64,000 nucleotides of DNA from Thermoanaerobaculia bacterium (GCA_963816185.1 CAWFJJ010000024.1:576001-640000), one strand, 5' to 3'; shown: positions 43,978 through 61,102, counted from the stretch's first letter. A program made the numbers and translations. Notes: generated from the letters alone by a model not told the origin.

Positions 43978-44065
43978 GGGGCACCTCCTCGGCAAGATCC
44001 TAGGTCTCAGTCGCAACGAGTGTCAAACCACTCGCGCGGCCGCCCCTATACTTCCGTGAAATTTG

Positions 44066-46894
44066 ATGCCGCTTTCTCCTGGCACACGTCTGGGTCCCTA
44101 CGAGCTCCTCTCACCCCTCGGCGCGGGCGGGATGGGGGAGGTCTACCGGGCGAAGGACGCGAGGCTCGCGAGAGACGTCGCGATCAAGGTACTGCCGGAA
44201 GAATTCTTCGAAGGTGAAGAGAGAAGGCAGAGGTTCGAGCGCGAGGCGAAGCTGCTGGCCTCGCTGAACCATCCGAACATCGCCGCCATTCATTCATTCG
44301 AAGAAATCCCCGGTGTTTCTTCGTCCTCTTCCCGCCACCTGCTCGTCATGGAGCTCGTCGAAGGCGAGGGGCTCGAACAGAAGATCGCTTCCGGCCCTCT
44401 TCCACTCGACGAATCTCTTTCTTACGCGAAGCAGATCGCCGAGGCGTTGGAAGCGGCGCACGAGAAGGGGATCGTCCACCGCGACCTCAAGCCCGCGAAC
44501 GTCAAGATCACGCACGACGGGCGCGTCAAGCTCCTCGACTTCGGGCTCGCAAAGATCTTCGAGGGCGACGGCAGCCCCGGCTCCGCGCCCTCGGTGACGC
44601 ATTCCCCGACGCTCACCGCCCGGGCCACGGCTGCGGGCGTGATCCTCGGGACGGCCGCATACATGAGTCCCGAGCAGGCCCGCGGCAAGCATCTCGACAA
44701 GCGGACCGACGTGTGGGCGTTCGGGTGCGTGCTGTACGAGATGCTGACCGGAAAGAGGGCCTTCGAAGGGGAGACCGTCAGCGACACGCTCGCGGCGATC
44801 CTCAAGGAAGACCCCAACTGGGCGGCGCTGCCTGAGCAGACACCTGCCGCTGTCAGGAGAATTCTTAGAAGGTGCCTGCAGCGCGACGCGAGGCTAAGGC
44901 TGCACGACATCGCCGATGCGCGGCTGGACCTCGAGGAGACGGCCGTCGCGGCAAGCTCGTCTTCCTCATTACCCTTCGAAGAAAAGACCGCGTTGCCCAG
45001 TCTCACTAAGGTAGCTACCGGGGAACGAACGAGTCGCGAGAGAGGGAGCAAGACTTCTCTCTATCTCTCCTGGGCGATTGCGGCCGCATTCGCGGCCGCT
45101 GCAGGAGCGCTCGCGCTTCGCGCTCGCGCTCCGCGGGCGGCGACCGCAATCCGCGGGCAGCTCTTGCTGTCGTCGGAAGAGCTGATGGACGGCGTCGGCG
45201 CCGCCGTCGTCGTTTCGCCCGACGGCCCCCGCCTCGCATACGTCACGAAGGGTGCCCGGCCGAGACTCTATCTGAGACCCTTGGACCAGCTCACGCCCGT
45301 CGAGGTGCCGGAGTCGGACGGCGCCGTCTGCCCGTTCTTCTCCCCGGATGGGAAATGGGTCGCGTTTTTCGCGGGTGGCAAGCTGCACAAGGCCCCGATA
45401 TCGGGTGGCGTGCCGGCAACGATCTGCTCCGCGCCCATCCCTCGTGGAGGCGCCTGGGTGTCCGAAGACACGATCGTGTTCGCGCCGCGGACGGTGGGCG
45501 GTCTTGCCGTGGTGTCGGCCTCCGGGGGCGAACCGAGAATCCTGACGAATGTGGACGTCGGCGCGCGCGAGCGGTCCCATCGCTGGCCCGCGGCCCTGCC
45601 CGGCGGCAAGGCCGTGCTGTTCTCGACGCAGTTCTCCGGCACCGATTACGACGACGGAGCCATCGAGATGGTGGACATCTCCACCGGGAAGCGGACGGTG
45701 GTGCACAGGGGGGGCTCGTTTCCGCGCTGGTCTCCGTCCGGCCATATCCTCTTTGCCCGGAGGGGGACGATCTACGCTGCGCCGTTCGACGTCTCGCGGG
45801 CGAGACTCACGGGGCGCCCCGTTCCGGTCCTCGAAAAAGTCTTCTCCTCCACGGGCGGGGAGGCACCATCGGACGGCAGCGCACAGATCGACGTCTCGTC
45901 CTCGGGGTTCTGCGCGTATCGCACGGGCGAGCCGGAGACGCTGTTCTCGCTCGCGCTCGTCGATCGCAAGGGCGGTATCCTCCGCAGGACGAGCCCTCCG
46001 CGGGGGTATGCGTGGACGCGCTTCTCGCCCGATGGGACGCGCGCCGCCATTCAGATCAGCGGGCCGAGCCAGTCCGACATCTGGATCTACGACGTCTCGC
46101 GCGACGCGTTCTCCAAGCTCACGTTCGAAGGAGACAACGTTGGAGCGGTCTGGAGCCCGGACGGGCGCGACGTCGTCTTCGCGTCGGACCGCGACCGCGA
46201 GCTCGTCGCGCAGCCGGGGGGCTCGTCGGTGACGCTGCGCGGCATCTACCGGAAGCGCGCGGACGGCTCGGGGCCCGTGCGCCTTCTGTTCAAGTTTGCG
46301 GGAGTCCTGGCTCCAACGGGGTTCTCGCCCGACGCACGGATGCTCGCGTTCCAGGCCACTCGGGTGGAGACCCAGACCGATGTCGGCGTCATCCGCCTCA
46401 AAGGGGACGTGGCCGACGGGGAGCCCCAGATGATCGTGGCCGGCCCCGCGAACGAGGCGGTTGGAGTCTTTTCTCCCGACGGGCGCTGGCTCGCTTACGA
46501 ATCGACCGACGGCGGGCTCGGGTACGTCTACCTTCGGAACGCCGCAGGCGGAGACGCCAAGTGGCAGGTCTCGGACGAAATGGGCTCCAGCCCGCGCTGG
46601 AGTCGCGACGGGACGCTCTACTTCGTGCGCCGGGATGATGCAGCCGTCGTCGCCACGCGCGTGGCCGCGGAGGGCGGCGCTCCCGTCTTCGGGAAGGAAG
46701 AGCGTCTCTTCAAACTCTCGTCGTTCGAGGCCGGGAGCCAGGTCGTCGCGGGGTGGGACGTCTCCCCGGACGGCCAGAGGTTCGTGACCCTGATACGCGA
46801 GGGCGCCGCGAACACGCCTGATGTCAACCACGTCACGCTCGCGTCGGACTTCGCGGCGGAGCTCGAGCGCCTGGTTCCCACGGGAGGGAAGTGA
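44066..46894 (+). CDS. Ser/Thr kinase-TM-PD40 receptor K7
   Basis: Kinase motifs; first ~490 nt nearly identical to K6. Confidence 0.93.
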
Positions 46895-47275
46895 CGGTGA
46901 ACACCCGCGCTCTCGGTCTTGCCGGGTCTCGCGTCTCCGCGATCGGCCTCGGCTGCATGGGCATGTCCGACCTCTACGGCCCGGCCGACAGGAGCGAGAG
47001 CATCGCCACGATCCATGCCTCACTCGACGCGGGAATCACGCTCCTGGACACCGGCGACTTGTACGGGGTGGGGCACAACGAGCTGCTGTTCAACGAGGCG
47101 CTGCGGGGCCGGCGCCCGCGAAGGTTTCGTGAGCGTCAAATTCGGGGCGCTCGCGCTCGACCTGAGCGCGGGGGACCTCGCGGAAATCGAGCGCGCCGTG
47201 CCGCCGGGGTCCGCCGCGGGCGACCGTTACGACGCCCACTCGATGAAGCTGCTCGACAGCGAGCGCGACGCGTGA
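46891..47275 (+). pseudogene. Aldo/keto reductase pseudogene (large internal deletion and frameshift)
   Basis: N-terminal IGLGCMGMS...[14 protein letters not shown], frameshift near 47120, then VSVKFGAL joined directly to the C-terminal [17 protein letters not shown]...GDRY. Confidence 0.85.
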
Positions 47276-47349
47276 GCGGGAGATCCCGGGCCGATGTTTC
47301 GCTGGATTTCGCCAGCCGCTTCTGAGAAGCTTGAGCGAAAGAACGCGCG

Positions 47350-47685
47350 ATGGAGCTGAGCACGGCGCAGGATGGGCGTGTCACGGTCTTGACCGTGAAG
47401 GGCGATCTCGTGATCGGCGAGGCCGAGGCTCTGTTCAAGAGAACCGTCATGAGCCTGCTCGAAGAAGGGAAGGTCGACCTTCTGATCGATTGCTCGGATC
47501 TGCGCATCGTGGATTCGACCGGTCTCGGCGCGCTCGTGCGTGCTCTCACGACGTCGCAGAACGACAGGGGCCGCGCCAAGCTCCTCGGAGTCGGTCCCCA
47601 CCTGAAGAAGCTCCTCGAGATCACGAGGCTCGATTCGGTCTTCGAGACTTTTGACAACCGCGAGCGAGCCGTCTCCAGCTTCTGA
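47350..47685 (+). CDS. STAS-domain anti-anti-sigma factor
   Basis: VKGDL...IDCSDLRIVDSTGLGALV...LLEITRLDSVFETF. Confidence 0.92.
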   Translation: MELSTAQDGRVTVLTVKGDLVIGEAEALFKRTVMSLLEEGKVDLLIDCSDLRIVDSTGLGALVRALTTSQNDRGRAKLLGVGPHLKKLLEITRLDSVFETFDNRERAVSSF

Positions 47686-47716
47686 ATCGAACGAGGGCCG
47701 CGAACCGCGCGGGACG

Positions 47717-50128
47717 ATGCCGATGGCTGAAGAGTCCGGGAAGCGGGAAGCCGCCGAGGCCGAAGTTGCCATGCTGGCGGAGCTCGCGCGCTGCGCGGGC
47801 TTGGGCGAACGCTCGACGTGGGCGGCCCGCTGGGCTGCCCGGCTCTCCGGAGCCGACACGGCCGTCCTCTTCGTCGCCGATCCCGCCCAGGCTCTCCTCG
47901 TCTGCACGGGCGCGTCCGGTGAGGAGGCCGCGAAGAGCCTGCGCCGGACCGTCTCCCGCGAAACGGGTCTCGCGCGGGACGTCCTGCACGACCGCGGAGC
48001 GCGCATGGTCCGGCTGGACGAGATCGCCTCCATCGCCGACCCGCTCGTCCAGACGCTGCCCGCCGGAGCGGCGGCGGTCCTCGTCGCGCCGCTCCTCCTC
48101 GAGCGGGGAGCGGCCGGCATCGTCGGCCTCGGCTTCCGCGAGACACCCTCGAAGGACCGGCTCGCGTCTCTCGAGCGCTTCCTTCGTCATGCTGCGGCGG
48201 CCGTCGAGAGAGCCCGTGAGGCGGAGACAAAGACGACTGGCCTCCTTGCCGCGGTCGAGCGGCTGACGAACCTCTACGACGTGACGAAGGCCTTCAGCTC
48301 CACGATCGACGCGGGCGAGCTCTCCCTTCTCGTGGCCCGCAAGGCGGCCGACCTCCTCGGCGCCGAGGTCGCGTCCCTCTGGCGGCTCGAGGGCGACGGC
48401 GACGTCGTCCTTGCCGCGACCGCGGTCAACGAGAACTACGACGTGACGAATCCGCCGGATGCGGTCGGCGGAGAAGTCGTGGGGGACGTCCTCGCGTCGC
48501 GCTCGATCGGGCGGGAGGACGAGCCGGGGCCCGGCGGCTCCGGAGCCGGCGCGCCGGTCGGCTCCCTTCTCGCCGCGCCTCTCCTCGAAGACGAGAGGCC
48601 GATCGGGGCGATCGCCGTTGCGAACAAGCGGGGGCGGAATCCGCGGTTCACCGACGCGGACGAGGCGCTCCTCGTGGACCTGGCGCACGCCGCCGTGCGG
48701 GCGCTTCACAACGTGAGGCTGTGGGAGGCCGAGAAGAAGGTCGCCGAGCTGGACGCGCTCCTCGCGGTGAGCCGCGAGATCACCTCGACGCTCGACCTCG
48801 ACAAGGTCATGCGGGCGATCGTCAACGGGACGTCCGCCCTGATCCGCTACGACCGCTGTGCGATTGCCATCCTCCACCGAGGAGCGCTCCGGATCGGGGC
48901 GATCTCCGGGGCGGCGGAGGTGGATCGCAAGGATCCGTCGGTCAGGCGGAGCCAGGCGCTCCTCGAGTGGGTCTTCTTCGGCGGCGCTGACGTCGCCGTG
49001 ACGCGCCGCGAGGACGGAACCATCACGACCGACCGCCCGGAGACCGAGGAGAAGTTCCGGGCCTTCTTCGACGAGAGCGGCCGCAATGCCTTCTACGGAG
49101 TCCTGCTCGAGGACGACGAGGGAAAGCTCGGCGTTCTCGGCTTTGAGTCGACGGAGCCCCTCGAGTTCGACGCGGAGACCCGGGACCTCCTCCAGATTCT
49201 CGTCAATCAGGCCATCGTCGCCGTCCGCAACGCCCAGCTCTACCAGCAGGTCCCGCTGCCCGGGTTCCTCCGGCCCCTCGCGGAGCGGACGCGGAAGTTG
49301 CGGGGCCAGACCGGGAGACGGCCCCGGCGGTGGGCGCTCGGGAGCGCGGCAGCCCTTGTCCTCCTCGCCGTCCTGCCGTGGAACGTCCGGGTCTCGGGGC
49401 CGGCACGCGTCGTCCCCGGACGCAGAATCCCCGTCACGGCGTCCGTCGAGGGCGTCGTCGAGAGCGTATTCCACCGCGAGGGCGACAAGCTCGCGGCCGG
49501 GGCCGTCGTCGCGACGCTCGCGCGACGAGGCCTACCGGGCCGCCCTCGCTGAGGCGCGCGCAGCCGAGCAGATCGCCGAGAGCCGACGTCTCCCGCTACA
49601 CGCGCCGAAGGCAACGCCGCGGCCCTGTTCCAGGCGGCGGCCCGCCGCGACGAGATGCGGGCGCGGGCGGCTCTTGCTGAGGAGAAGCTCGAGCGGACGC
49701 GCCTCCGCGCGCCCGAGGCCGGCGTCGTCCTGACGCCCCGGCTCGAGGAGCGCGTCGGCCAGCTCCTCGCGGCGGGCGCCGAGTTCGCCGTTCTCGCCGA
49801 CACCTCGGCGGTTCTCGTGGAGGTGGCCGTGTCGGAGCGGGACGCGTCGCTCGTCGCCGTCGGACAGAAGGTCGACGTCAAGATGAACTCCTATCCCGCG
49901 TCCGACGTTCCACGGGACGGGTCGGTCCGCCTCGGCGCCGCCGTCCGCGAGGAAGGCGAGGAGCGCTTCGTCATCGCCGAGGCGCGCGTCGAGAACGCGG
50001 ACGGGCGGCTCCGGCCCGGCATGCTCGGAAAGGCGAAGGTCTCGACCGGAACCCAGCGCCTCCTTCGCGCGCTCCTCCGGAAGCCGGTGCGCTAGATCTG
50101 GCTGAGGCTCTGGCCGCTCCTGCCGTGA
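47717..50128 (+). CDS. GAF-GAF(-GAF)-HlyD/membrane-fusion-protein fusion (frameshifted in this sequence)
   Basis: GAF signatures (VANKRG..RFTDADEALL; LVNQAIVAVRNAQLY), TM, ASVEGVVESVFHREGD, LRAPEAGVV, LRPGMLGKAKV. Frame breaks near 49525 and 49600; in-frame TAG at 50093. Confidence 0.8.
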
Positions 50129-52321
50129 GCGCTGGCCGTGCCGGCCCCGGCCTCGCAGTCGTCGCGCGCCGCTCGCCGCGGACGCGCCGCCGAGGCCCTC
50201 GCCGCCCGCCACGGGCTCCGGCTCGACCGCCCGACTCTGCGGAAGGACCTCGTCATCCGCCGCCTCGTGCAGATCGGCGAGGTGACCTGGGTCGTCAAGC
50301 AGCCGGAGACGAACAAGATCTACAACTTCGACGACGACAATTGGGCCCTCATCGAGCTCTTCGACGGGACGCGGACCCGGACCGAGATCCTCGAGGAGTA
50401 CCGCGCGGCGTTTTCCGGGGGGAGATCCCCCTTCACGCTCGTCCTCGATTTCGAGGAGATGCTTCGAAGGATCGACCTCCTCGAGCAGTCGGCTTCCGAG
50501 CGGAACCTCCAGCTCCTGTCGAAGTTCAAGAGGCCCGAGACAGCGGGCCGCCGAGGAGAGCGCCGAGGGCTTCAACGTCTTCTTCATGCTCTTCAAGGTC
50601 TTCGATCCCGACCGGTTCCTCACCCGGACGCTCAGTTACGTCCGCTGGATCTGGCGTCCGCCGGTCGTTGCCGTCGCCTGCCTGACGTTCGTCTTCACGA
50701 TCTCGGTCTTCGTCGGCGCACTTCGACACCGATCTGGGCCCAGACGCTCGAGCTCTACGCCTTCCTGAGGAAGCCGTTCTGGGACGCCGTCCAGTTCTTC
50801 GTGATCCTCACCGGCATCGGCGCCATCCACGAATTCGCGCACGGCTACGTCACGAAGTTCTACGGCGGCGAGGTGCACGACATCGGGATCGCGCTCCTCT
50901 ACTTCATGCCGGCGTTCTACTGCGACACGACCGACTCGCTCCTCTTCCAGAGCAAGTGGCAGCGGCTCTGACGTCACGGTGGCGGGGATCTACATCGAGG
51001 CGATCCTCTGCACCATCGCGACGGCGCTCTGGGTCGCGACCTACCCGGACACGCTTCTCCACGAGCTCGCCTACAAGACGATGCTCTTCACCGGCGTCTC
51101 GACCGTCTTCTTCAACATCAACCCGCTCGTGAAGATCGACGGCTACTACGCCCTCTGCAGCCTCATCGAGATCCCGGAGCTGCGCGAGGAGTCGTTCCGG
51201 TAGCTCGGCGCCCTCTTCCAGCGGCACGTTCTCCGGCTGAACGTCGAGGTGCCCGTCCTCTCGCGCCGCAAGCGGCGGATCTTCCTCGTCTACGCTCCGC
51301 TCGCGCTCGGGTACACCGGCTTCATCATGACTTTCATCGCGAAGCTCCTCGACAACTTCTACTCGAAGATCGTCCCGGAACTGGCCGTCGTTCTGCTGCT
51401 CGTCACGCTCTACTTCTTCTTCCGGAAGCGGGTCCGCCTCGTCGTCCGGATCTCCCGCCTCCTCTATCTCGACAAGAAGGAGCTCGTCATGTCGCCGCGA
51501 GCCCGCTTCCCCCTCCTTGCCGCCGCCGCCGGCCTCGTCCTCCTCCTCGCCGTTCCCTGGGGCCGGCGGACGATCTCCATCGACTGCATCCTCGAGCCCG
51601 CCGCGTCTTTGAAGGTGGAAGCCCCGGAGGACGGGGTCGTCCGGGAGGTCTTCGCGCGCGAAGGCGACCTCCTCCGGGCGGGACAGCCCCTCTTCCGGAT
51701 CGAGAGCTCCGGCGTCGCGCGCCGATCTCGCATCCCTTTCGGCCCGCCGCGCGGGAGCCGCAGACGAGACAGCACGCAGCCTCCGGTCCGGGGACGTCGG
51801 GGACGTCTATCGGTCCGAGCGGAAGGAAGGAGCGGCCGCCGCCGGCCTCGCCCGCGACGCGGCGCGCACGGCGCGGCTCGCCGTGCCGAGCCCGATGGAC
51901 GGGCGCCTCCTGACGGCACGCACGGAGGATCTCGTCGGCAGGTGGGTCACGGCGGGAACCGCACTCGGAACCGTCGGGGACACGCGGCAACTGACGGCAG
52001 CGTTTCCGGTTTCGGAGCGCCTTCTGACCGACCTCGCGGTCGGGGCGCCGGTTTCGGTGCAGCTCCGCGGGCGCCCGTTCCAGATCCTCCGCGGCGCGAT
52101 CGTTTCGATCGCTCCCGCGTCCCAGCCGGCTCCGGCCCACGCACGCCCTCCGCCCATCCGAGACGCCGGGCCGCTTCGTGGCGGTAGCGCTCTTCGAGAA
52201 CCCCGGCGGAAGCCTGCAGCCGGGACTCGAAGGGCTGGCGAAGATCCAGGGCCCCAGGAGGTCGCTCATCGGAGAGGGTGTCCGCATTCTCGCCCGGTGG
52301 TTCCGCCAGATCGCGTGGTGA
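50125..52321 (+). CDS. PqqD/RRE-like - M50 (site-2) zinc metallopeptidase - HlyD fusion (multiple frameshifts/stops in this sequence)
   Basis: N-terminal WVVKQPETNKIYNF...LFDGTRT (RRE-like), HEFAH (HExxH), AGIYIE, NINPLVKIDGYY, APEDGVVREVFAREGD, SPMDG, ENPGGSLQPG...RWFRQIAW*. Reconstructed across ORFs starting at 50138, 50586, 50979, 51249 and 51883. Confidence 0.8.
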
Positions 52322-52324
52322 ACG

Positions 52325-52359
52325 AAAACAAAAGCGCCCCGGCCGGGGCCGGGGCGCGC
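52325..52359 (-). terminator. Rho-independent terminator of the repeat-peptide gene
   Basis: GCGCCCCGGC/GCCGGGGCGC stem followed on the minus strand by TTTTGTTTT. Confidence 0.85.
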
Positions 52360-52381
52360 TCACGTTCGAATGGAAGGACGC

Positions 52382-52819
52382 TCAGTCGGCGTTCTCCGTG
52401 GTCCGCGCGTTCAAGACCCTGGGAGCCGCCTGCGCGCGGGCCGTGTTGAGCCGCGGGGCGGCCTGAACGCGGGCAGCGTTCATCTTGGGGGCCGCCTGTG
52501 CGCGGGCCGTGTTGAGCCGCGGGGCGGCCTGAACGCGAGCAGCGTTCATCTTGGGGGCCGCCTGTGCGCGGGCCGTGTTGAGCCGCGGGGCGGCCTGAAC
52601 GCGGGCAGCGTTCATCTTGGGGGCCGCCTGTGCGCGGGCCGTGTTGAGCCGCGGAGCGGCCTGAACGCGGGCGCTCGCCACCTTGGCCGACATCGTCGGC
52701 GTGACGGCCGGGTTGCGGCCGAGGTTGCTGACGCGAATCTCGCCGACGGCCTGGCCGGTCGCCTCCTTGATCTTCGCCTTCTGATCGTCGGTCAGCTTGA
52801 TTCGCACTTCGTTTGCCAT
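52382..52819 (-). CDS. 145-aa leader-plus-tandem-repeat peptide (candidate precursor/secretion substrate)
   Basis: AAGGAGGAGG RBS, ATG 52819; MANEVRIKLTDDQKAKIKEATG... followed by alternating ARVQAAPRLNT/ARAQAAPKMNA; has its own promoter and terminator. Confidence 0.85.
   Translation of the reverse strand: MANEVRIKLTDDQKAKIKEATGQAVGEIRVSNLGRNPAVTPTMSAKVASARVQAAPRLNTARAQAAPKMNAARVQAAPRLNTARAQAAPKMNAARVQAAPRLNTARAQAAPKMNAARVQAAPRLNTARAQAAPRVLNARTTENAD
52425..52672. repeat. 66-bp tandem repeat (about 3.75 copies) built from two 33-bp subunits
   Basis: GCCGCCTG recurs at 52425, 52491, 52557 and 52623. Confidence 0.95.
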
Positions 52820-52866
52820 GGGTGCCTCCTCCTTGTTCTTCCGCCTTCTGGCGTTGCGATCGTCAG

Positions 52867-52883
52867 TGCAAGCAGGAGGCCAA
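52867..52883 (-). promoter_or_regulatory. Sigma-54 promoter of the repeat-peptide gene
   Basis: Minus strand TTGGCCTCCTGCTTGCA = GG-N10-GC with TTGC. Confidence 0.8.
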
Positions 52884-52959
52884 CGCGAGTCCGCCGGCCT
52901 GCACCGGCAACCCGTTGAGAATTCATCTCCATGCTCCGGCGCCAGGGCAGCGTGCGGTG

Positions 52960-52989
52960 TGACTATTTCAACCGGGGTTGACTCTTTCA
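52960..52989. promoter_or_regulatory. Candidate enhancer (UAS) for the adjacent activator
   Basis: TGACTATTTCA (52960) and TGACTCTTTCA (52979) direct repeat, each TGA-N5-TCA, overlapping the palindrome TCAACC-GG-GGTTGA; 80-105 bp upstream of the -24 element. Confidence 0.55.
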
Positions 52990-52993
52990 CCCC

Positions 52994-54367
52994 TCAGAGT
53001 CGGTACTTCCGGCAGAGGTACTTCATCTGGTTCGCGTCGAGGCCGAGCGCTTCGGCGGCACGCGCTTTGACCCCGCCGGAGCGCGCGATCGCCCGGGCGA
53101 TCCTCTCGCGCTCGAACCGGGCGATAGCCTCCGAGAGAGGCAGGTCGTCGTCGGCCCTTCGGCCCGTCGTCTCGGGTAGCGCCTCGGATCGGCCGAGAGC
53201 TCCCGGGAGATGCTCCGGAGCGATCGTCTCACCGTCCACCATCAGCGTCAGCATCTCGACGAGGTGCTCGAGCTCGCGCACATTCCCGCGGAAGGGGTGC
53301 GTCGCGAGCGCCTGTAGCGTCTCGTGGGCGAAGGCCTTCGGCGGCCGGCCGGCCCGCGCCGCCGCCCGCTCCGCGAAAAGCTCGACGAGGAGCGGAAGGT
53401 CCTCCCGTCGCTCGCGGAGGGGCGGAATCCTAAGGGGAACCGTGTTCAGCCGGTAGAAGAGGTCCTCCCGGAAGGTCCCCGTCCGTACCCGCGCCCCGAG
53501 GTCCTCGTTCGTGGCGGCGACGAGGCGGATGTCGACCGCGATCGGCTTTCGTCCACCCACCCGCTCGACCTCCCGGCTCTCGAGAGCGCGCAGGAGCTTC
53601 GCCTGCACTGCGGGCGATAGGGTCGCGACCTCGTCGAGGAAGAGCGTTCCCTTGTGCGCCAGCTCGAACTTTCCGGGCCGCGACGCCATGGCTCCGGTGA
53701 AGGCTCCGCGCTCGTGCCCGAAGAGCTCCGACTCGGCGAGCGCCTCGGGCAGGGCGGAGCTGTTCACGACGACGAAGGGGCCATCTCTGCGCGGGCTTCC
53801 CGCGTGGATCGCCTCGGCCACCAGCTCCTTTCCGGTCCCGCTCTCGCCGTAAATGAGGACCGTCGCGTCGGAGGGCGCCACCTTCCCGATCGCCTCGAAG
53901 AGAGCACGCATCGGGGCGCTCGCCCCGACGAGCCGGCCGAGCGAGCGCCGCCGGAGCGCCTCCTCCCGGAGGGTGCGATTCTCTCGGAGGAGGCGGTGCC
54001 GCTCGAGCGCCCGCGAGAGGACGACGAGGAGCTCGACCGTGTCGAACGGCTTCCTGAAGAAGTCGAAGGCGCCGAGCTCGAGTGCGCTGAGCGCGAGGCG
54101 CCGCTCGGTCTCCGCCGTCATCACGAGGACCGTCGCGTCGGCACACTTCTTCCGGAGAGCGGCGACGAGGCGCAGCCCCTCCTCCGGCTCGCCCGAGGGC
54201 GGGAGCCGGAGATCCACGAGGAAGACGTCCGGATCGTGGTCTGCGAGCGCGAGCCCTTCGGCGGTGTCGCGGGCGGGAAGGACCTCGAACCGGCCCTTCA
54301 GCGCCCAGGCGAGCTGATCGAGAAGGACCGGGTCGTCTTCCACGACCACGATGCGCCCGGACTCCAC
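52994..54367 (-). CDS. Sigma-54-dependent response regulator, PrsR-like
   Basis: VEDDPVLLDQLAWAL...DLRLPP..PEEGL REC (resembles PEP-CTERM PrsR), GESGTGKE, GAFTGA, C-terminal HTH. Confidence 0.92.
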   Translation of the reverse strand: MESGRIVVVEDDPVLLDQLAWALKGRFEVLPARDTAEGLALADHDPDVFLVDLRLPPSGEPEEGLRLVAALRKKCADATVLVMTAETERRLALSALELGAFDFFRKPFDTVELLVVLSRALERHRLLRENRTLREEALRRRSLGRLVGASAPMRALFEAIGKVAPSDATVLIYGESGTGKELVAEAIHAGSPRRDGPFVVVNSSALPEALAESELFGHERGAFTGAMASRPGKFELAHKGTLFLDEVATLSPAVQAKLLRALESREVERVGGRKPIAVDIRLVAATNEDLGARVRTGTFREDLFYRLNTVPLRIPPLRERREDLPLLVELFAERAAARAGRPPKAFAHETLQALATHPFRGNVRELEHLVEMLTLMVDGETIAPEHLPGALGRSEALPETTGRRADDDLPLSEAIARFERERIARAIARSGGVKARAAEALGLDANQMKYLCRKYRL

Positions 54368-54369
54368 GT

Positions 54370-55080
54370 TCAGCTCCTTTCGCGCGCGCCACCCTGCGGG
54401 GAACCGGCGCCGGGGAGCGTCACCCGGACCAGCGTTCCCGCATCGGGCCCGCTCTCGACGGCGATTTCGCCGCCGTGCAGCCCGAGAATCTGGCGGGCGG
54501 TGTAGAGGCCGAGCCCAACGCCGCCCGGCTTAGTCGTCCGGAAGGGATGGAAGAGGTCCGAGGCGAGGAACTCCGGCGTCATCCCCGGGCCGTCGTCCTG
54601 AATCTCGACGACAGCCCTCGTCCGCCCTCCGCGCCGTGCCGAGAACGCGCGCACCGTGACGAGCCCGCCAGCGGCTTCGAGAGCGTTCTGAAACACGTTC
54701 TGGAACGCCTCGCCGAGATAGAACGGATCCCCCCAGACGCGGGGGAGCTCGTCGATCTCCGTCGCGACCCGCACCGCCGGACCGCCGGCGCGCTGCCGGG
54801 GCGCGGCCACGACCTCGCGGAGCAGGTCGGCCGGGTCGATCGGTATCTTGATCAAGACCGCCTCGCGGCTCGCGGCCCAGTGCGTCAGGGCGGCGTCGAT
54901 CTTCTGGACTGTCGACTGGAGCAGGTCGGAGACGCTGCGCTTGAAGTCGGGGTCGCCGTAGTGCTCGTCGAGGTTCCCGAGAAGGAGGTTCAGCCGCTGC
55001 CCCACGTTCTTCATGTCGTGGAGAAGGACGGAGTCGGCGGCCGTTCTGAGACCGCGCGATCCGGCGCGGTGGCGGCTCAC
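54370..55080 (-). CDS. Sensor-less histidine kinase, PrsK-like core
   Basis: HDMKNVGQRLNLLLGNLDEHYGDPDF (compare PrsK HDLKN...NPEF), NALEA, DDGPG, FRTTKPGGVGLGL; no TM or sensor domain. Confidence 0.88.
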   Translation of the reverse strand: MSRHRAGSRGLRTAADSVLLHDMKNVGQRLNLLLGNLDEHYGDPDFKRSVSDLLQSTVQKIDAALTHWAASREAVLIKIPIDPADLLREVVAAPRQRAGGPAVRVATEIDELPRVWGDPFYLGEAFQNVFQNALEAAGGLVTVRAFSARRGGRTRAVVEIQDDGPGMTPEFLASDLFHPFRTTKPGGVGLGLYTARQILGLHGGEIAVESGPDAGTLVRVTLPGAGSPQGGARERS

Positions 55081-55874
55081 GGCCTTGCCGGCGCGCCGCC
55101 GAAGCCGAGCTGGACCGCCATCCCAGGCCTCAGGGTGCCCTTCGGGTCCCGGCGGACCCTGACGATGACCTGAACGGTGCCGCTCCCGGGATCGAGGACC
55201 GGGCTGACGAAGCTGACGCGGCCGGTCGAGAGGGCCTCCGGAAAATCGGGGGCGTGCACCGAAACCTCCTGCCCGACCTTCACCGCCCGGAGGGCCGTGC
55301 CCGGGAGGAAGGCGCGCGCGAGGAGAGGCTCGAGCGCCATCACCTTGAAGAGCGGCTTGCTCTCCTCGAGAGTGAACTTCTCTCCCACGCGCGCGTAACG
55401 GTCGGCCACGATCCCGTCGAAAGGAGCCCGCACGACCGACCGGTCGATCACGAGCTTCGCCCTCTCAAGCTCCACGAGGGCAAGCTCATGCCGCGATCTC
55501 CTCTGCTCGAACTCGGCCTCGCTCGTCAGGTTCTGGCGGCGCAGCTCCTCGTACCGCTTCAGGTCCGCAAGACTCACGGCGAGCGTCTCCTCCGCGGCGC
55601 GGAGGTCGAGCTGGAATTCCCGCTGATCGAGCGTCGCGAGGGCCTGCCCCTTGCGGACCTGATCTCCACGGTCGGCCTGGATGGAATCGATCACCCCGGT
55701 GACCCGCGTGGTCACGGTGACCTCCTGCTCGACCATCAGGTTCGAGGCGACCGTGAGCGCGGGAGACGCGGGCACCGGCGCACCGGCGCCGGCCCTCGCG
55801 AGGTTAAGGAGGGAGATGGCGATGAACGCCCGACCAGAAAGCCGGATTGGTCCGCGCGTGATTTTCTTTCTCAA
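55077..55874 (-). CDS. Stand-alone periplasmic adaptor (RND/HlyD MFP)
   Basis: RVTGVIDSI..DRGDQVRKGQ, VRAPFDGIV, GRVSFVSPVLDPGSGT, LRPGM. Start uncertain (TTG 55874). Confidence 0.85.
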   Translation of the reverse strand: MRKKITRGPIRLSGRAFIAISLLNLARAGAGAPVPASPALTVASNLMVEQEVTVTTRVTGVIDSIQADRGDQVRKGQALATLDQREFQLDLRAAEETLAVSLADLKRYEELRRQNLTSEAEFEQRRSRHELALVELERAKLVIDRSVVRAPFDGIVADRYARVGEKFTLEESKPLFKVMALEPLLARAFLPGTALRAVKVGQEVSVHAPDFPEALSTGRVSFVSPVLDPGSGTVQVIVRVRRDPKGTLRPGMAVQLGFGGAPARP

Positions 55875-57302: not shown

Positions 57303-59687
57303 ATGACACTCTCAGTGGGTGCTCGTCTAGGCCCTTATGAGATTCTCGCGCCACTCGGCGCGGGCGGCATGGGGGAGGTCTACAAGGCGAAGGACACGCG
57401 CCTCGACCGAGAAGTCGCGCTGAAGGTCCTGCCGGACGACCTCTTCGAAGACAAGGATCGCGTCGCGCGCTTCCAGCGCGAGGCGAAATCGCTTGCCTCG
57501 CTGAATCACCCCGGCATCGCCGCCGTTCATTCCTTCGAAGAGGTCTCCGGGCGTCATGTTCTCGTCATGGAGCTGCTCGAGGGGGAGACTCTGCGTGAGC
57601 GACTCTCCGGGGGCGCGATCCCGGTCCGGAGGGCCGTTGCGTACGGTGTGCAGATCGCGCGGGGCCTCGCCGCCGCGCACGAGCGGGGAATTGTTCACCG
57701 CGACCTCAAGCCCGAAAACCTCTTCGTGACGAAGGACGAGCGCGTCAAGATCCTGGATTTCGGCCTCGCCAAGAAGACGAGCCGGGCGACGGACGGCGCG
57801 GAAAGCACGAAATCACCGACGCTGACGGCGGGAACGGAAGCGGGCGTCGTCCTGGGCACGGTCGGCTACATGTCGCCCGAACAGGTGCGGGGAGAGAGCG
57901 TCGATTTTCGCTCCGACATCTTCTCCCTAGGCGCGATCCTCTACGAGATGTTGTCGGGCAGGCGCGCGTTCCGGGGCGCCTCGAACGCGGACACGCTCAG
58001 CGCGATCCTGAAGGAGGAGACGGCGGACCTCACGGCGTCGAACCCGGAGATCCCACCTTCGGTGGCCCGGGTGATCCGCCACTGTCTCGAAAAGAGTCCG
58101 CAAGTGCGTTTCCACTCCGCCAGCGATGTCGCTTTCGCCCTCGAGGAGGCGTCGGGCACGGAAGCCGAGGCACGGCCGGCCGCCGCCGCGCCGGGGCGCA
58201 CGCGCACGCGCCGGTTCGTTGCCACGGGAGCCGTGGTCCTGACCGTCCTCGCGATTCTCGCGATCGCCGCCGGGAAGTTCCGCAAGCCACCTCCGGGCGG
58301 CGCCGCCGGCGGCATCCAGTCGATCGCGGTCCTGCCGCTCGAGAACTTCTCCCGAGACGCCGAACAGGAGTACTTCGCCGACGGCATGACGGAGGAGCTG
58401 ATCACGGATCTCGCCCAGATCCGGTCTCTGCGCGTGATCTCGCGAACCTCGTCGATGGCGTACAAGGGGACGAAGAAGAAGATCCCGGAAATCGGGCGGG
58501 AGTTGAACGTCGACGCGGTGCTGGAAGGCTCCGTCCAACGGAGCGGTCCGCGTGTACGCGTGACCGCGCAGCTCATCCGCGCCTCCACGGACCAGCATCT
58601 CTGGGCCCGTAGCTACGAGCGGGATCTGAGCGATGTCCTCGGCCTCCAGAGCGAGATCGCGGCGGCCGTGGCCCACGAAGTTCAGGCCGCACTGACTCCC
58701 GAGGAAAAGATGCGCCTGACTCAGGCGAGGTCCATCGACCCGGAAGCGCACGAGCTCTACCTGAAGGGCCGTTTCCACTGGAACAAGGGGACAGAGGGCG
58801 ACCTCGTCGCGGCGATCCGGGACTTCGAGAGCGCGCTGGCGAAGGACCCCGGCTACGCCCCGGCCTGGGCCGGCATTGCGGACTCCTACGTCTCCCTTTC
58901 GGACGTCTACCGACCCCCCTACGAAACGATGCCCAAGGCGAAGGCGGCCGCCACGAAGGCTCTGCAGCTTGACGAGACGCTGGCCGATGCGCACGTCTCG
59001 CTCGCCAATATTCAGCTCAACTACGACCGGGACTGGGCCGCCACCCAGCGCGAGGCCCGGCGTGCTCTGGAGCTGAATCCGAACTCGGCGGGCGCGCACG
59101 ACATCCTCGGCCTCTATTTCACCGTTATCGGACGCGCGGCAGAGAGCGCGGCCGAGGCTGCGCGTGCGTTGGAGCTCGATCCCCTCTCCGTCACGTTCAC
59201 CTCCGACGCCGGCTGGGGCCGGCTCGCGGCGCGCGATTACGACAAGGCCATCGAGTTCTTTCACAAGGCGGTGGAGATCGAGCCCGGCTTCGGCTTCGCC
59301 CACGAGAGCTTGGCGATCGCTTACGTCCAGAAGCGCATGTGCCCCGAGGCGATCGCCGACGCCGAAAAAGGGACGAAGGCGGACGACAGCCCCTTCGTGT
59401 TCGCCACGTCCGGGGGGGTCTACGCGGCCTGTGGCAAGAGCGACAGGGCGCGGGAAGTCCTGGACAAACTCGCCGGACCTTACCGGGACCGGTACGTCTG
59501 CCCGTACGAGATCGCCATCATCCACATCGGCCTTGGTGAGAAGGACGCAGCTTTCCGGTCATTCGAGAAAGCGCTGCAAGACCGGTCCATCTGCGTCCCG
59601 TTCCTCAAGGTCGATCCGCGTCTCGACCCCATCCGCTCCGACCCCCGATACCTCGACCTCGTGCGGCGCCTCGCGTTCCCGACCTGA
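57303..59687 (+). CDS. Ser/Thr kinase with TolB_N/FlgO-like domain and TPRs
   Basis: Kinase motifs; SIAVLPLENFS...YFADGMTEELI...LRVISRTS; TPRs; DPRLDPIRSDPRY tail. Confidence 0.93.
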   Translation: MTLSVGARLGPYEILAPLGAGGMGEVYKAKDTRLDREVALKVLPDDLFEDKDRVARFQREAKSLASLNHPGIAAVHSFEEVSGRHVLVMELLEGETLRERLSGGAIPVRRAVAYGVQIARGLAAAHERGIVHRDLKPENLFVTKDERVKILDFGLAKKTSRATDGAESTKSPTLTAGTEAGVVLGTVGYMSPEQVRGESVDFRSDIFSLGAILYEMLSGRRAFRGASNADTLSAILKEETADLTASNPEIPPSVARVIRHCLEKSPQVRFHSASDVAFALEEASGTEAEARPAAAAPGRTRTRRFVATGAVVLTVLAILAIAAGKFRKPPPGGAAGGIQSIAVLPLENFSRDAEQEYFADGMTEELITDLAQIRSLRVISRTSSMAYKGTKKKIPEIGRELNVDAVLEGSVQRSGPRVRVTAQLIRASTDQHLWARSYERDLSDVLGLQSEIAAAVAHEVQAALTPEEKMRLTQARSIDPEAHELYLKGRFHWNKGTEGDLVAAIRDFESALAKDPGYAPAWAGIADSYVSLSDVYRPPYETMPKAKAAATKALQLDETLADAHVSLANIQLNYDRDWAATQREARRALELNPNSAGAHDILGLYFTVIGRAAESAAEAARALELDPLSVTFTSDAGWGRLAARDYDKAIEFFHKAVEIEPGFGFAHESLAIAYVQKRMCPEAIADAEKGTKADDSPFVFATSGGVYAACGKSDRAREVLDKLAGPYRDRYVCPYEIAIIHIGLGEKDAAFRSFEKALQDRSICVPFLKVDPRLDPIRSDPRYLDLVRRLAFPT

Positions 59688-59968: not shown

Positions 59969-61102
59969 ATGAAAAAGCGGATGTTGATGACGTCATTCGT
60001 GTTGGCCGTTTTTCTGGCGGGCATCGGAACGCTGAAGTTTCGGCAGGTTCGGGCAGCGATCGCGAAGAACTCGTCGTTCCAGCCGCCTCCGGAGGCCGTG
60101 ACCACGATCGTCGCGCACACCGAAGAGTGGCCGGCGAACCTCGCGGCCATCGGAACCGCGGTCGCGGTTCAGGGTGTCACGGTCAGCGCGGACCTGCCCG
60201 GGATCGTCGACCAGATCAACGTCGAGTCCGGAAAGGCCGTACGGCAGGGCACCGTCCTCGTGCAATTGGACACGAAGCAGGAGCGGGCGCAACTGGCCGC
60301 CGCCGAGGCGCAGCTCAAGCTCGCGCGCCTCAGCTTCGACCGGCTGCGGCCGCTCAGGGACAAAGGCGTCGTCGCCCAGGCGGACTACGACAAGGCTGCG
60401 GCGGACCAGGCTCAGGCCGAGGCTCACGTCGGCGAGATCCGTGCCACGATCGAGCGGAAGACGATTCGCGCTCCGTTCTCGGGGATTCTCGGGATCCGTG
60501 AGGTGAACCTCGGGCAGTACCTGGCCGCCGGCGACAAGGTCGTGCCTCTTCAATCCCTCGATCCCATCTACGTGAACTTCTCTGTTCCGCAGCAGGAATT
60601 GGGCCGCGTGCGGCCCGGCGCGAGAGTGCGCGTCAGGACCCAGGCATCGGCTGGTCCTCCGGCCGAGCTCATGGGAAAGGTCACGGCGATCGACTCGGTC
60701 GTAAACGACGCCACGCGGAACGTCCAGGTCCAGGCCACGTTCGCGAACCCGAACGGGAAGCTGCGCCCGGGGATGTTCGTGGAAGCGAAAGCCCTTCTCG
60801 GCACGAGCAACAAGGTCATCTCGCTCCCGGCTTCCGCGATCAACTATGCGCCGTACGGCGACTCGGTGTTCGCCGTCGTGACCTTCGAGGCTCCCGATGG
60901 GAGACGCTTTCGAGGCGTCCAGCAGCAGTTCGTGAAGCTCGGCGCTTCGCGCGGCGACCAGGTCGCCGTCGTTTCGGGCATCAAGGACGGACAGGAAGTC
61001 GTGACTTCGGGCGTCTTCAAGCTTCGCAACGGCGCCGCGGTCCTGGTGAACAACAAGGTGCAACCGGCGGACAACCCATCTCCCAAGCCCGAGGACAGCT
61101 GA
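59969..61102 (+). CDS. RND efflux periplasmic adaptor (MexV/MexH-like)
   Basis: N-terminal anchor; IRAPFSGILG, TRNVQVQATF, LRPGMF. Confidence 0.92.
   Translation: MKKRMLMTSFVLAVFLAGIGTLKFRQVRAAIAKNSSFQPPPEAVTTIVAHTEEWPANLAAIGTAVAVQGVTVSADLPGIVDQINVESGKAVRQGTVLVQLDTKQERAQLAAAEAQLKLARLSFDRLRPLRDKGVVAQADYDKAAADQAQAEAHVGEIRATIERKTIRAPFSGILGIREVNLGQYLAAGDKVVPLQSLDPIYVNFSVPQQELGRVRPGARVRVRTQASAGPPAELMGKVTAIDSVVNDATRNVQVQATFANPNGKLRPGMFVEAKALLGTSNKVISLPASAINYAPYGDSVFAVVTFEAPDGRRFRGVQQQFVKLGASRGDQVAVVSGIKDGQEVVTSGVFKLRNGAAVLVNNKVQPADNPSPKPEDS

Follow-up and report, generated by a model that had tools for sequence, protein, structure and literature searches.

A conserved acidobacterial gene module with a possible role in leader-guided processing and export of a tandem-repeat peptide

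Organisation of the locus

This report concerns a stretch of 64,000 nt from a Thermoanaerobaculia bacterium (GCA_963816185.1 CAWFJJ010000024.1:576001-640000), referred to as the window, and within it a module of seven genes at positions 47350-55874, where the GC content is ~70%. A reading of the window made from the sequence alone had described two convergent gene arms that meet at a short peptide gene, and had proposed a repeat-peptide processing and export system. Listing of open reading frames (ORFs) and profile scans found every gene of that description in its place.

The plus-strand arm begins with a STAS-domain protein of the anti-sigma-antagonist type (47350-47685, 111 aa; Pfam STAS 2.1e-16, TIGR00377 2.5e-16). 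Gene 2 (47651-50128) encodes a periplasmic adaptor of architecture GAF-GAF(-GAF)-transmembrane (TM) segment-HlyD (Pfam GAF_2/GAF_3/GAF and HlyD_D23/HlyD_3), and gene 3 (50125-52321, starting at GTG 50125 or GTG 50138) encodes a fusion of a PqqD-like RRE domain, an M50 peptidase, a TM region and HlyD, 731 aa long when intact. Both of these genes are broken in this assembly. The minus-strand arm is convergent with the first. It starts with a membrane-anchored periplasmic adaptor of the membrane fusion protein (MFP) type (55077-55874, TTG start at 55874; TIGR01730 RND_mfp 148.8 bits, HlyD_D23 1.3e-24), which is the first gene of an operon with a histidine kinase (HK) lacking sensor and TM segment (54370-55080, 236 aa; H-box, HATPase_c 3.8e-20) and a bacterial enhancer-binding protein (bEBP) for sigma-54, a response regulator of organisation REC-AAA+-HTH_8 (52994-54367, 457 aa; Pfam Sigma54_activat 4.3e-68, Response_reg and HTH_8). 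The last gene of the arm (52382-52819, minus strand) encodes a precursor peptide of 145 aa, recognised as leader plus tandem-repeat core from its translation, its leader homologues and its repeat array.

The precursor peptide and its leader

The second half of the peptide gene is a tandem repeat with a 66-nt period (3.8 copies, 97% matches). In translation, a conserved leader of ~40-42 aa is followed by 11/22-aa tandem repeats, AQAAPRLNTAR / AQAAPKMNAAR. Among 45 distinct leaders, positions M1, N3, V5, I7, L9, T10, Q13, I17, T21, G22 and E27 are invariant, and the leader motif picked out in the sequence-only reading is upheld, I-x-L-T-x-x-Q-x3-I-x3-T-G being present in all of them. The conservation is of amino acids, and spans 43% to 72% GC. 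The leader is covered by neither a Pfam nor an NCBIfam model.

The core sequences diverge between species and retain their composition. Four of 48 precursor ORFs run on out of frame and were excluded from the composition count. Pooled over the remaining 44 clean Thermoanaerobaculia precursors, the cores consist of Ala 32%, Arg 14%, Ser 11% and Lys 8.5%; K+R amounts to 23% and D+E to 1.8%, Ser and Thr occur, and there is no Cys or Trp. Their median length is 102 aa, the repeat periods range from 5 to 22 residues, with 9 the commonest, and there is a basic residue every 3.0-5.5 residues. A conserved leader joined to a species-variable core of retained composition is the usual pattern of leader-dependent processing. 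In the long-read metagenome-assembled genomes (MAGs) that carry L032, L041, L067 and L073 (leader ORFs near 12.5-13.0 kb) the precursor ORF goes out of frame past the repeats, running on for hundreds of Arg/Pro/Gly-rich codons, and repeat arrays in such long-read relatives seem prone to indel errors.

Close homologues of the peptide number 22 in a set of 5.8 billion proteins, all of them unnamed. A profile of the 45 leaders, run against 1.84 billion cluster representatives, matched 195 proteins with E<=1e-3, of which 82 reach E<=1e-10, and an Atlas search with the leader (score 0.90, 129 shared features) led to unnamed clusters. The weaker profile matches retain a leader of the form (V/I)-x-I-K-L-T-D-E-Q-R-x-Q-I-K-x-A-T-G-x-D-x-x-E-L-K-V, and have as cores quite different repeats, with (E/D)RANP, AKKAAPK or RKAP units. 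A few distant relatives of the leader (P0236, P0244, P0255, P0265, P0280) have an added second motif of GG type, and in a Lys-rich relative there is a weak match to the histone-H1-like model of NCBIfam (30 bits, cut-off 80; 5.8e-07). It is worth adding that several long proteins (P0143, 1425 aa; P0151, 3346 aa; P0216, P0217 and P0241) match the leader profile in up to 22 stretches, which hints at an LT-x-x-Q-x3-I-like motif that recurs within large, unrelated proteins.

The RRE-M50-HlyD protein

Gene 3 had been proposed to begin with an RRE-like domain, and the fold predicted for this N-terminal domain supports the assignment. An AlphaFold2 model based on 74 homologues exceeds a pLDDT of 90 from residue 20 to residue 100 and has a beta3-alpha3 topology (strands 24-30, 33-40 and 45-50; helices 51-57, 66-76 and 84-96). 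The top five Foldseek matches are all RRE/PqqD proteins, namely TbiB1 with leader and PqqD (E 5e-3 to 4e-2, target TM score 0.61-0.73). A structure scan independent of Foldseek, covering 48,161 chains, placed leader-bound lasso B1 proteins first, with VIA Z of 11.0 (6jx3_B; rmsd 2.4, 84 aligned) and 10.8 (5v1u_A). Lower in the ranking are TigE (9.5), PqqD 5sxy (8.3), ThcOx (8.1) and the PbtF RRE (7.8), together with the further RRE proteins MibB, LynD, MccB, CteB and NisB; two lysine methyltransferase winged-helix domains also appear, at Z 8.5-9.1.

At the level of sequence, Pfam PqqD (PF05402) is the commonest weak match, found in 27 of the 74 N-terminal domains at E<=1 (best 1.7e-4), all below the cut-off. 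A profile of the domain gave only a chance match to PDB sequences (E 0.096), and Pfam gave no match on the 277-aa fragment read in the window, because part of that fragment is out of frame. RREs are described in the literature as divergent in sequence. Co-folding of the RRE domain with the leader scored 0.00 in two runs, which were done without controls and speak neither for nor against binding.

The daptide HExxH protease model NF041824 matches the window fragment at 8.4e-20 and the intact orthologue at 1.3e-48 (166.1 bits), the latter alignment extending over residues 53-431, that is RRE plus M50, and profile positions 17-366 of 379. The intact orthologue also matches the YydH/LiaK model NF058609 (E 2.9e-12, 46.8 bits against a cut-off of 225), and passes Peptidase M50 PF02163 (32.4 bits against 27.2), so that it belongs to the M50 family; Pfam HlyD is matched as well. 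Among 26 sequences there is no variation at H234, E235, H238, N329, P332, D337 and G338, the residues of the zinc motifs HExxH and N-x2-P-x4-D-G. The window encodes both motifs, although not in one and the same frame. Fusion of an RRE to a site-2 protease that removes the leader has been published for daptides. Given this precedent, the NF041824 match across RRE and M50 marks the RRE-M50 unit as a known kind of leader peptidase, and judged by profile alignment the two domains are homologous, as a unit, to the daptide enzyme.

In a full-length model of the G010 orthologue (mean pLDDT 78), the RRE (residues 43-115) is followed by a helical membrane region (162-474). After the last TM segment come strands of lipoyl/barrel-sandwich and beta-barrel type (478-525 and 584-712), two 26-residue helices that form the adaptor hairpin (527-581), and a C-terminal helix. 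Look-alike clusters of the RRE-M50-HlyD protein are listed by Atlas in Pseudomonadota and Planctomycetota, and are noted here as a lead only.

Promoter and regulators

The claim that the peptide gene has its own sigma-54 promoter, a strong ribosome binding site and a terminator was confirmed. The promoter TGGCCTCCTGCTTGC (52868-52882, minus strand; -24 TGGC / -12 TTGC) starts at 52882, 63 nt upstream of the peptide ATG, and is one of only five sites on both strands of the window that fit TGG[CT]-N7-TTGC. A strict sigma-54 regular expression used initially found 0 of 48 homologous loci, and the element has C where the textbook consensus has A. The pattern was redefined after inspection of the sequences, and was then counted on the same data against shuffles; in this form, TGG-N8-TTGC, it is kept in 48/48 loci, 43-81 nt upstream of the ATG, compared with a mean of 0.56/48 in 200 shuffles. 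In all 48 loci GGAGG lies 6-10 nt upstream of the ATG. The intrinsic terminator (52334-52357, minus strand; 10 G-C pairs, loop of 4, T-rich tail) occupies the 60-nt gap between the convergent genes, with a run of T after the stem. A -24/-12 element at a short upstream distance, together with an adjacent gene for an AAA+ sigma-54 activator, characterises the site as a predicted sigma-54 promoter.

The best NCBIfam match of the bEBP is PrsR of the PEP-CTERM system (419.8 bits, under the cut-off of 502.6), and the HK matches the C-terminal part of PrsK (128.4 bits, cut-off 300). That the HK lacks a sensor, as the sequence-only reading had it, agrees with what was found: an H-box and HATPase_c without a sensor domain, and in the G080 orthologue no hydrophobic segment.

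Conservation of the gene set

All seven genes are found in the same order in 10/10 long loci of relatives, and the leader ORF is present in each. One of the ten, L022, comes from the unpublished genome G030, and without it the count is 9/9; the short contigs L014, L017 and L024 end ahead of the peptide position. The N-terminal part of gene 3 is present in 32 of 41 relatives, usually within one open frame of 720-1500 codons, and the named homologues come from Thermoanaerobaculia and Acidobacteriota MAGs. The STAS gene keeps its position. None of the window's own flanking genes stands beside the module in relatives, and in many of these the MFP is followed by DndB-like, LemA and M48 genes. Since the flanks change while the seven genes persist, the seven genes are the unit that is kept together.

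Among the neighbours, two Ser/Thr protein kinases flank the module in the window (44063-46894 and 57303-59687, both on the plus strand). PD40 beta-propeller repeats occur in one of them and TPR repeats in the other; neither kinase adjoins the module in relatives. In the loci of 17 relatives a DUF2063/NGO1945-type gene lies upstream (for example L048:2725-3720, minus strand). Such genes are partners of DUF692 enzymes in other peptide pathways, and here the gene is probably just a neighbour.

The sequence-only reading had predicted that loci with an M50-HlyD gene would also carry the leader ORF, and they do. In a set of 80 contig loci, one genome per species, 68 counted as having 700 nt or more beyond the M50-HlyD gene, and 66 of these have a leader match. 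The other two, L049 and L072, are contigs that end inside the M50-HlyD gene, so the criterion for room misfired on both. The leader ORF is present in 61/61 of the loci that have all six proteins. In the 80 loci, 63 leader ORFs are convergent with the M50-HlyD gene, at a median of 73 nt from the end of the M50-HlyD match, and four loci have two leader ORFs.

Distant Acidobacteriota, with proteins of ~30% identity, show the co-occurrence too. Scanning metagenomes with the DRANP subgroup of leaders gave 61 loci of ~52% GC. Of the 35 that are at least 3.5 kb long, 26 have at least one module protein and 16 have the RRE-M50-HlyD gene; eight of the nine with no module protein are weak leader matches, the ninth being L129. 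The long loci of this group have the order STAS, FHA-GAF-SpoIIE phosphatase, HAMP-HK, bEBP and peptide, with RRE-M50-HlyD, MFP and GAF-HlyD convergent to them. Identity in these soil contigs is ~30% for RRE-M50-HlyD, 37-40% for GAF-HlyD and ~48% for the bEBP.

In a sample of 401 genomes across the phylum, which takes in the unpublished G025 and G190, the RRE-M50 part was detected in 61 genomes (E<=1e-10) and the leader in 18 (E<=1e-3). The RRE-M50 part is present in 17 of these 18, and in 15 both lie within ~2.5 kb on one contig. Of 12 loci taken from other families of Acidobacteriota, 11 have the module as well, at 43-72% GC. Seven of the 11 have IKLT-type precursors with other repeats (SALASK, SPAKRV, AKKAAPKQIM, ERANPLSVGIEA). 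At the peptide position of the remaining four, which represent four other families, there are different small Lys/Ser-rich ORFs (L166:7612-7740; L167:10606-10989, minus strand; L168:7077-7954; L169:6973-7179), for example one with a SKNISL repeat and three short ORFs of KKxxKPIxKxKKLG type, none of them with an IKLT-type leader. These may be further precursor families. Other acidobacterial lineages have an FHA-GAF-SpoIIE (PP2C) phosphatase by the STAS or HK gene (L107:2417-4120, plus strand; L171:13069-14721, minus strand), which suggests a partner-switching layer that is not at this locus in the Thermoanaerobaculia version.

The adaptor proteins

The intact orthologue of the GAF-HlyD protein (L012:5576-7990) has 804 aa, with a single TM segment at ~542-560, two clear GAF domains and a possible third; it belongs to the intact module of G010 (contig DATKLW010000173.1, L012:5200-13600). 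Against TIGR01730 (RND_mfp, cut-off 94.9 bits) the MFP passes with 148.8 bits, the GAF-HlyD of G010 scores 94.9, exactly at the cut-off, and RRE-M50-HlyD falls below it at 61.8. The G080 MFP has an N-terminal anchor. Scores against TIGR01843 (type I HlyD) are 58.9 and 28.2 bits, far under the cut-off of 208.65.

It had been noted from the sequence that the locus contains no ABC ATPase, TolC or tailoring enzyme, and none of these is kept with the module in any lineage examined. The conclusion drawn from this, that the locus is neither a standard type I secretion system nor a standard RiPP (peptide made by the ribosome and modified after translation) cluster, also stands: the module has no ABC or outer membrane factor (OMF) gene, TIGR01843 is not passed and no modifying enzyme is conserved. 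Genes for daptide tailoring (decarboxylase, aminotransferase, methyltransferase, DUF-RRE) were absent among the module and flank genes in the window, L107 and L171. The further statement that there is no RND pump holds for the seven module genes, but not for their surroundings, as an MFP plus AcrB-type pump lies at 59969-63999. This is an ordinary MFP and RND pump pair (59969-61102 and 60502-63999, plus strand), 3.7 kb past the module and not kept beside it in relatives.

State of genes 2 and 3 in this copy

Alignment of the intact G010 proteins to the window places the breaks of gene 2 at an indel pair, ~49521/~49590, and at TAG 50093-50095, which replaces a conserved Trp (TGG-to-TAG). Those of gene 3 are at ~50405/50426, ~50532, ~50713, ~50731, ~50968, ~51712 and ~52125, the last three being seen by the G010 protein alignment. 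Contigs of ~94%-identical relatives from soil metagenomes have single-base gaps relative to the window at 50405, 50426, 50532/3, 50713 and 50731, and gaps at 50966-50971. The stretch 50532-50731 is out of frame and open by chance. The gaps account for the fact that, in the 277-aa ORF, residues ~133-193 agree with relatives only when read in another frame. The frameshifts mentioned in the sequence-only reading therefore exist, but are more numerous than it implied. Outside this region the long ORFs of the window, which reach 1166 codons and total ~38 kb, are intact, so that the cluster of breaks is local; frameshifts were mapped from the list of long ORFs, as a plot of GC3 by frame is too coarse.

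The breaks are either those of a recently decayed pseudogene pair, a somewhat doubtful reading under which the system would be dead here, or local consensus errors from a long-read or strain-mixed assembly, in which case the genes would be intact. Decay is favoured by the concentration of at least nine indels and the TGG-to-TAG change within 49.5-52.2 kb beside ~38 kb of intact long ORFs, and by the genome having no second copy of the module. The aldo/keto reductase at the left edge of the module (46882-47290, plus strand) is a real pseudogene, with ~75 N-terminal aa in one frame, ~45 C-terminal aa in another and ~200 aa deleted, and such a true remnant next door argues for decay too. Consensus error is favoured by an excess of insertions over deletions, some in compensating pairs, by the position of several breaks at homopolymers or beside GATC, and by a frame-corrected identity to G010 of 81-87%, as high as in intact genes; leader ORFs in several long-read MAG relatives go out of frame as well. 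The best sequencing runs contain, as contigs, only ~94% relatives, which are without the window's indels at 50405-50971. The contigs of four runs were compared and gave only such relatives, and no run containing this strain was found (best share of words 0.10). Programmed frameshifting was considered and rejected, as the break sites are conserved in none of the relatives.

Proposed mechanism and alternatives

The sigma-54 promoter, the bEBP and the HK form a switch, and the GAF and STAS domains, with the PP2C phosphatase found elsewhere, suggest further cytoplasmic gating. We hypothesise that the seven genes are a conserved acidobacterial module for the regulated production, leader-guided proteolytic maturation and probable envelope export of an unmodified polycationic tandem-repeat peptide, a proposal that as a whole falls a little short of an even chance. 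The cytoplasmic HK and the bEBP would switch on the precursor gene at its own sigma-54 promoter. The cytoplasmic RRE domain with which the M50 protease (site-2 type) begins would bind the leader (~40 aa), and the protease would cut the leader off close to its conserved G-x-N-P-A end, in the manner of the daptide homologue MpaP. The repeat core would then be passed outward via the C-terminal periplasmic adaptor domain of the protease, the GAF-HlyD and the MFP, and might leave through an unlinked outer-membrane channel, with an energy source outside the identified genes. The apparatus would be gated by the cytoplasmic GAF and STAS domains, to which other lineages would add the FHA-GAF-PP2C phosphatase.

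These steps are not equally strong. Binding of the leader by the RRE and its removal by the M50 domain are likely, because a conserved leader with a free-running core lies 50-700 nt from a protease that has a leader-binding fold and a daptide homologue. Export of the core by the adaptors is possible though doubtful, and is suggested by the presence of periplasmic adaptor domains in three proteins, among them the protease itself. The product may be a polycation for matrix or surface, an antimicrobial, a signal or an intracellular binder of polyanions. The interpretation in the sequence-only reading is thus supported in part, by the RRE-like N-terminal domain and by the co-occurrence of leader and protease; an N-terminal domain of another kind, or M50-HlyD loci without the leader, which it had named as decisive against it, were not what was found.

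Several observations weigh against the hypothesis of maturation and export. Membership of known families is weak at the sequence level, the N-terminal domain of G010 scoring 15.3 bits against the PF05402 gathering score of 23.4, and the 166.1 bits with NF041824 lying below its whole-protein cut-off of 300. In the 401-genome sample, 44 of the 61 genomes with the RRE-M50 part gave no match to this leader profile, and L129 has a leader ORF and no module protein in its 4 kb. Not all cores are cationic, those with DRANP/ERANP-type repeats being near neutral or acidic. Where the net charge is ~+20, outward movement of the core opposes the membrane potential. In none of the lineages examined does the module keep an ABC, RND, MFS, OMF or tailoring gene; as transporter and OMF genes are not kept, export would proceed without an identified motor or outer channel. 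Finally, this assembly has at least nine indels and one nonsense codon across the whole of gene 3 and the HlyD portion of gene 2, so the system may be inactive here.

The missing exporter and outer channel, and the number of cytoplasmic signalling parts (STAS, GAF, HK and bEBP, with FHA-GAF-SpoIIE elsewhere), would fit processing without export. The core would then stay in the cell and bind DNA, RNA or polyphosphate in the manner of histone H1, or the peptide would be a protease substrate in a signalling circuit, and the HlyD, GAF and STAS parts would sense the state of envelope or cytoplasm and not act as a conduit. The composition of the core (Ala 32%, K+R 23%, D+E 1.8%, a basic residue every 3.0-5.5) and the weak histone-H1-like match of the Lys-rich relative (30 bits against 80) point the same way, although that match reflects composition only. 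We think this unlikely: three proteins each have a periplasmic adaptor domain behind a TM or signal anchor, which is much machinery for a cytoplasmic product, and a hypervariable core on a conserved leader is typical of secreted peptides. It is less probable still that the product is a true RiPP, with tailoring enzymes elsewhere in the genome and the module providing recognition, leader removal and export. RRE domains are a usual part of RiPP pathways, and the nearest protease families, daptide and YydH/LiaK, come from modified-peptide pathways. However, neither in Thermoanaerobaculia nor in four other arrangements is a modifying enzyme kept next to the module. A repeat core of 100 aa is also unusual, and the cores have no Cys and are poor in the residues of most known RiPP chemistry, though Ser and Thr are present. 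It is hardly credible that the 145-aa ORF is open by chance, as a frame across repeated DNA that codes for nothing. Its complexity is low, it is often missed by gene callers, and there are only 22 related proteins in the 5.8-billion-protein set; but the leader is conserved as amino acids from 43% to 72% GC, GGAGG is present in 48/48 loci with a conserved sigma-54 promoter and a terminator, and 82 cluster representatives match at E<=1e-10.

If maturation is coupled to export as hypothesised, the module might show in what way a leader peptidase could be connected straight to periplasmic adaptors with no pump of its own. A bolder and improbable extension is that it is an envelope-spanning secretion device of a new kind, in which an RRE-guided protease-adaptor fusion takes the place of an ABC or RND pump, and the GAF-gated and third adaptors help to mature and expel polycationic repeat polymers; these might conceivably serve as species-specific extracellular polycations, whether as a signal, an antimicrobial or a glue of the matrix, and their repeat units might be set free singly. 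Acidobacteriota belong to the most common bacteria of soil, and their secreted chemistry is little known; a secreted polycation would have a bearing on soil aggregation, biofilm matrix and microbial antagonism. The locus is a compact sigma-54-switched cassette, suited to testing by heterologous expression. RRE-M50-HlyD is a widespread and unstudied protein architecture, and the precursors form a large uncurated family (195 cluster representatives at E<=1e-3) in which a fixed leader is joined to fast-evolving repeat cores.

Comparison with known systems

The sequence-only reading called the system undescribed. This has to be qualified, since an RRE fused to a leader-removing site-2 protease is published for daptides; the HlyD fusion, the partner genes and the precursor family are new. 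No description of this gene combination was found in Pfam, NCBIfam or the literature searched, and the supplements of the daptide preprint, which were outside that search, may list RRE-peptidase families that include it.

The nearest known system is the daptide RRE-S2P peptidase, MpaP/DapP (NF041824). It likewise has an N-terminal RRE fused to an M50 HExxH domain, the profile spanning both, and its gene adjoins a precursor with a conserved leader, the published role of MpaP being leader removal. The module protein differs in having in addition a TM segment and a C-terminal HlyD-type adaptor of ~250 aa, and scores 166 bits against 300. The module adds two extra adaptors and regulatory genes, and lacks MpaB/C/D/M; its precursor has a polycationic repeat core of 100 aa, whereas the daptide precursor is short, hydrophobic and ends in Thr.

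YydH/LiaK of the Bacillus yydFGHIJ locus resembles gene 3 (E 2.9e-12) in that it is an M50 protease reserved for a small ribosomal peptide. The module has neither the radical-SAM epimerase nor the YydIJ ABC transporter of that system, and the match reaches 46.8 bits against 225. YydH is not known to have a HlyD fusion.

PrsK and PrsR, of the PEP-CTERM/XrtA system, are the best NCBIfam matches of the HK and bEBP, and both pairs drive sigma-54 promoters. The scores are below the cut-offs, however, the HK of the module is without the membrane and sensor part of PrsK, and no exosortase or PEP-CTERM gene accompanies it.

The module adaptors share with the AcrA/MacA/HlyD adaptors of tripartite pumps the lipoyl/barrel-sandwich and beta-barrel domains and an alpha-hairpin. 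In contrast to these, they come without a cognate inner-membrane pump in the module and form fusions with a protease or with cytoplasmic GAF sensors. Their hairpin, at 2 x 26 residues, is short, and a membrane-proximal domain is not seen in the model.

In the export of class II bacteriocins and microcins of the CvaA-CvaB-TolC type, a leader-cleaving ABC transporter works with a HlyD-family adaptor. The likenesses are an unmodified peptide, an N-terminal leader, cleavage coupled to an adaptor, and variable cores. The protease of the module is an RRE-guided M50 enzyme and not C39, there is no ABC transporter, and of the three adaptors one forms part of the protease and another carries GAF domains. 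By analogy, the module would work most like the leader-dependent export of unmodified bacteriocins, with the M50 protein replacing the C39-ABC transporter.

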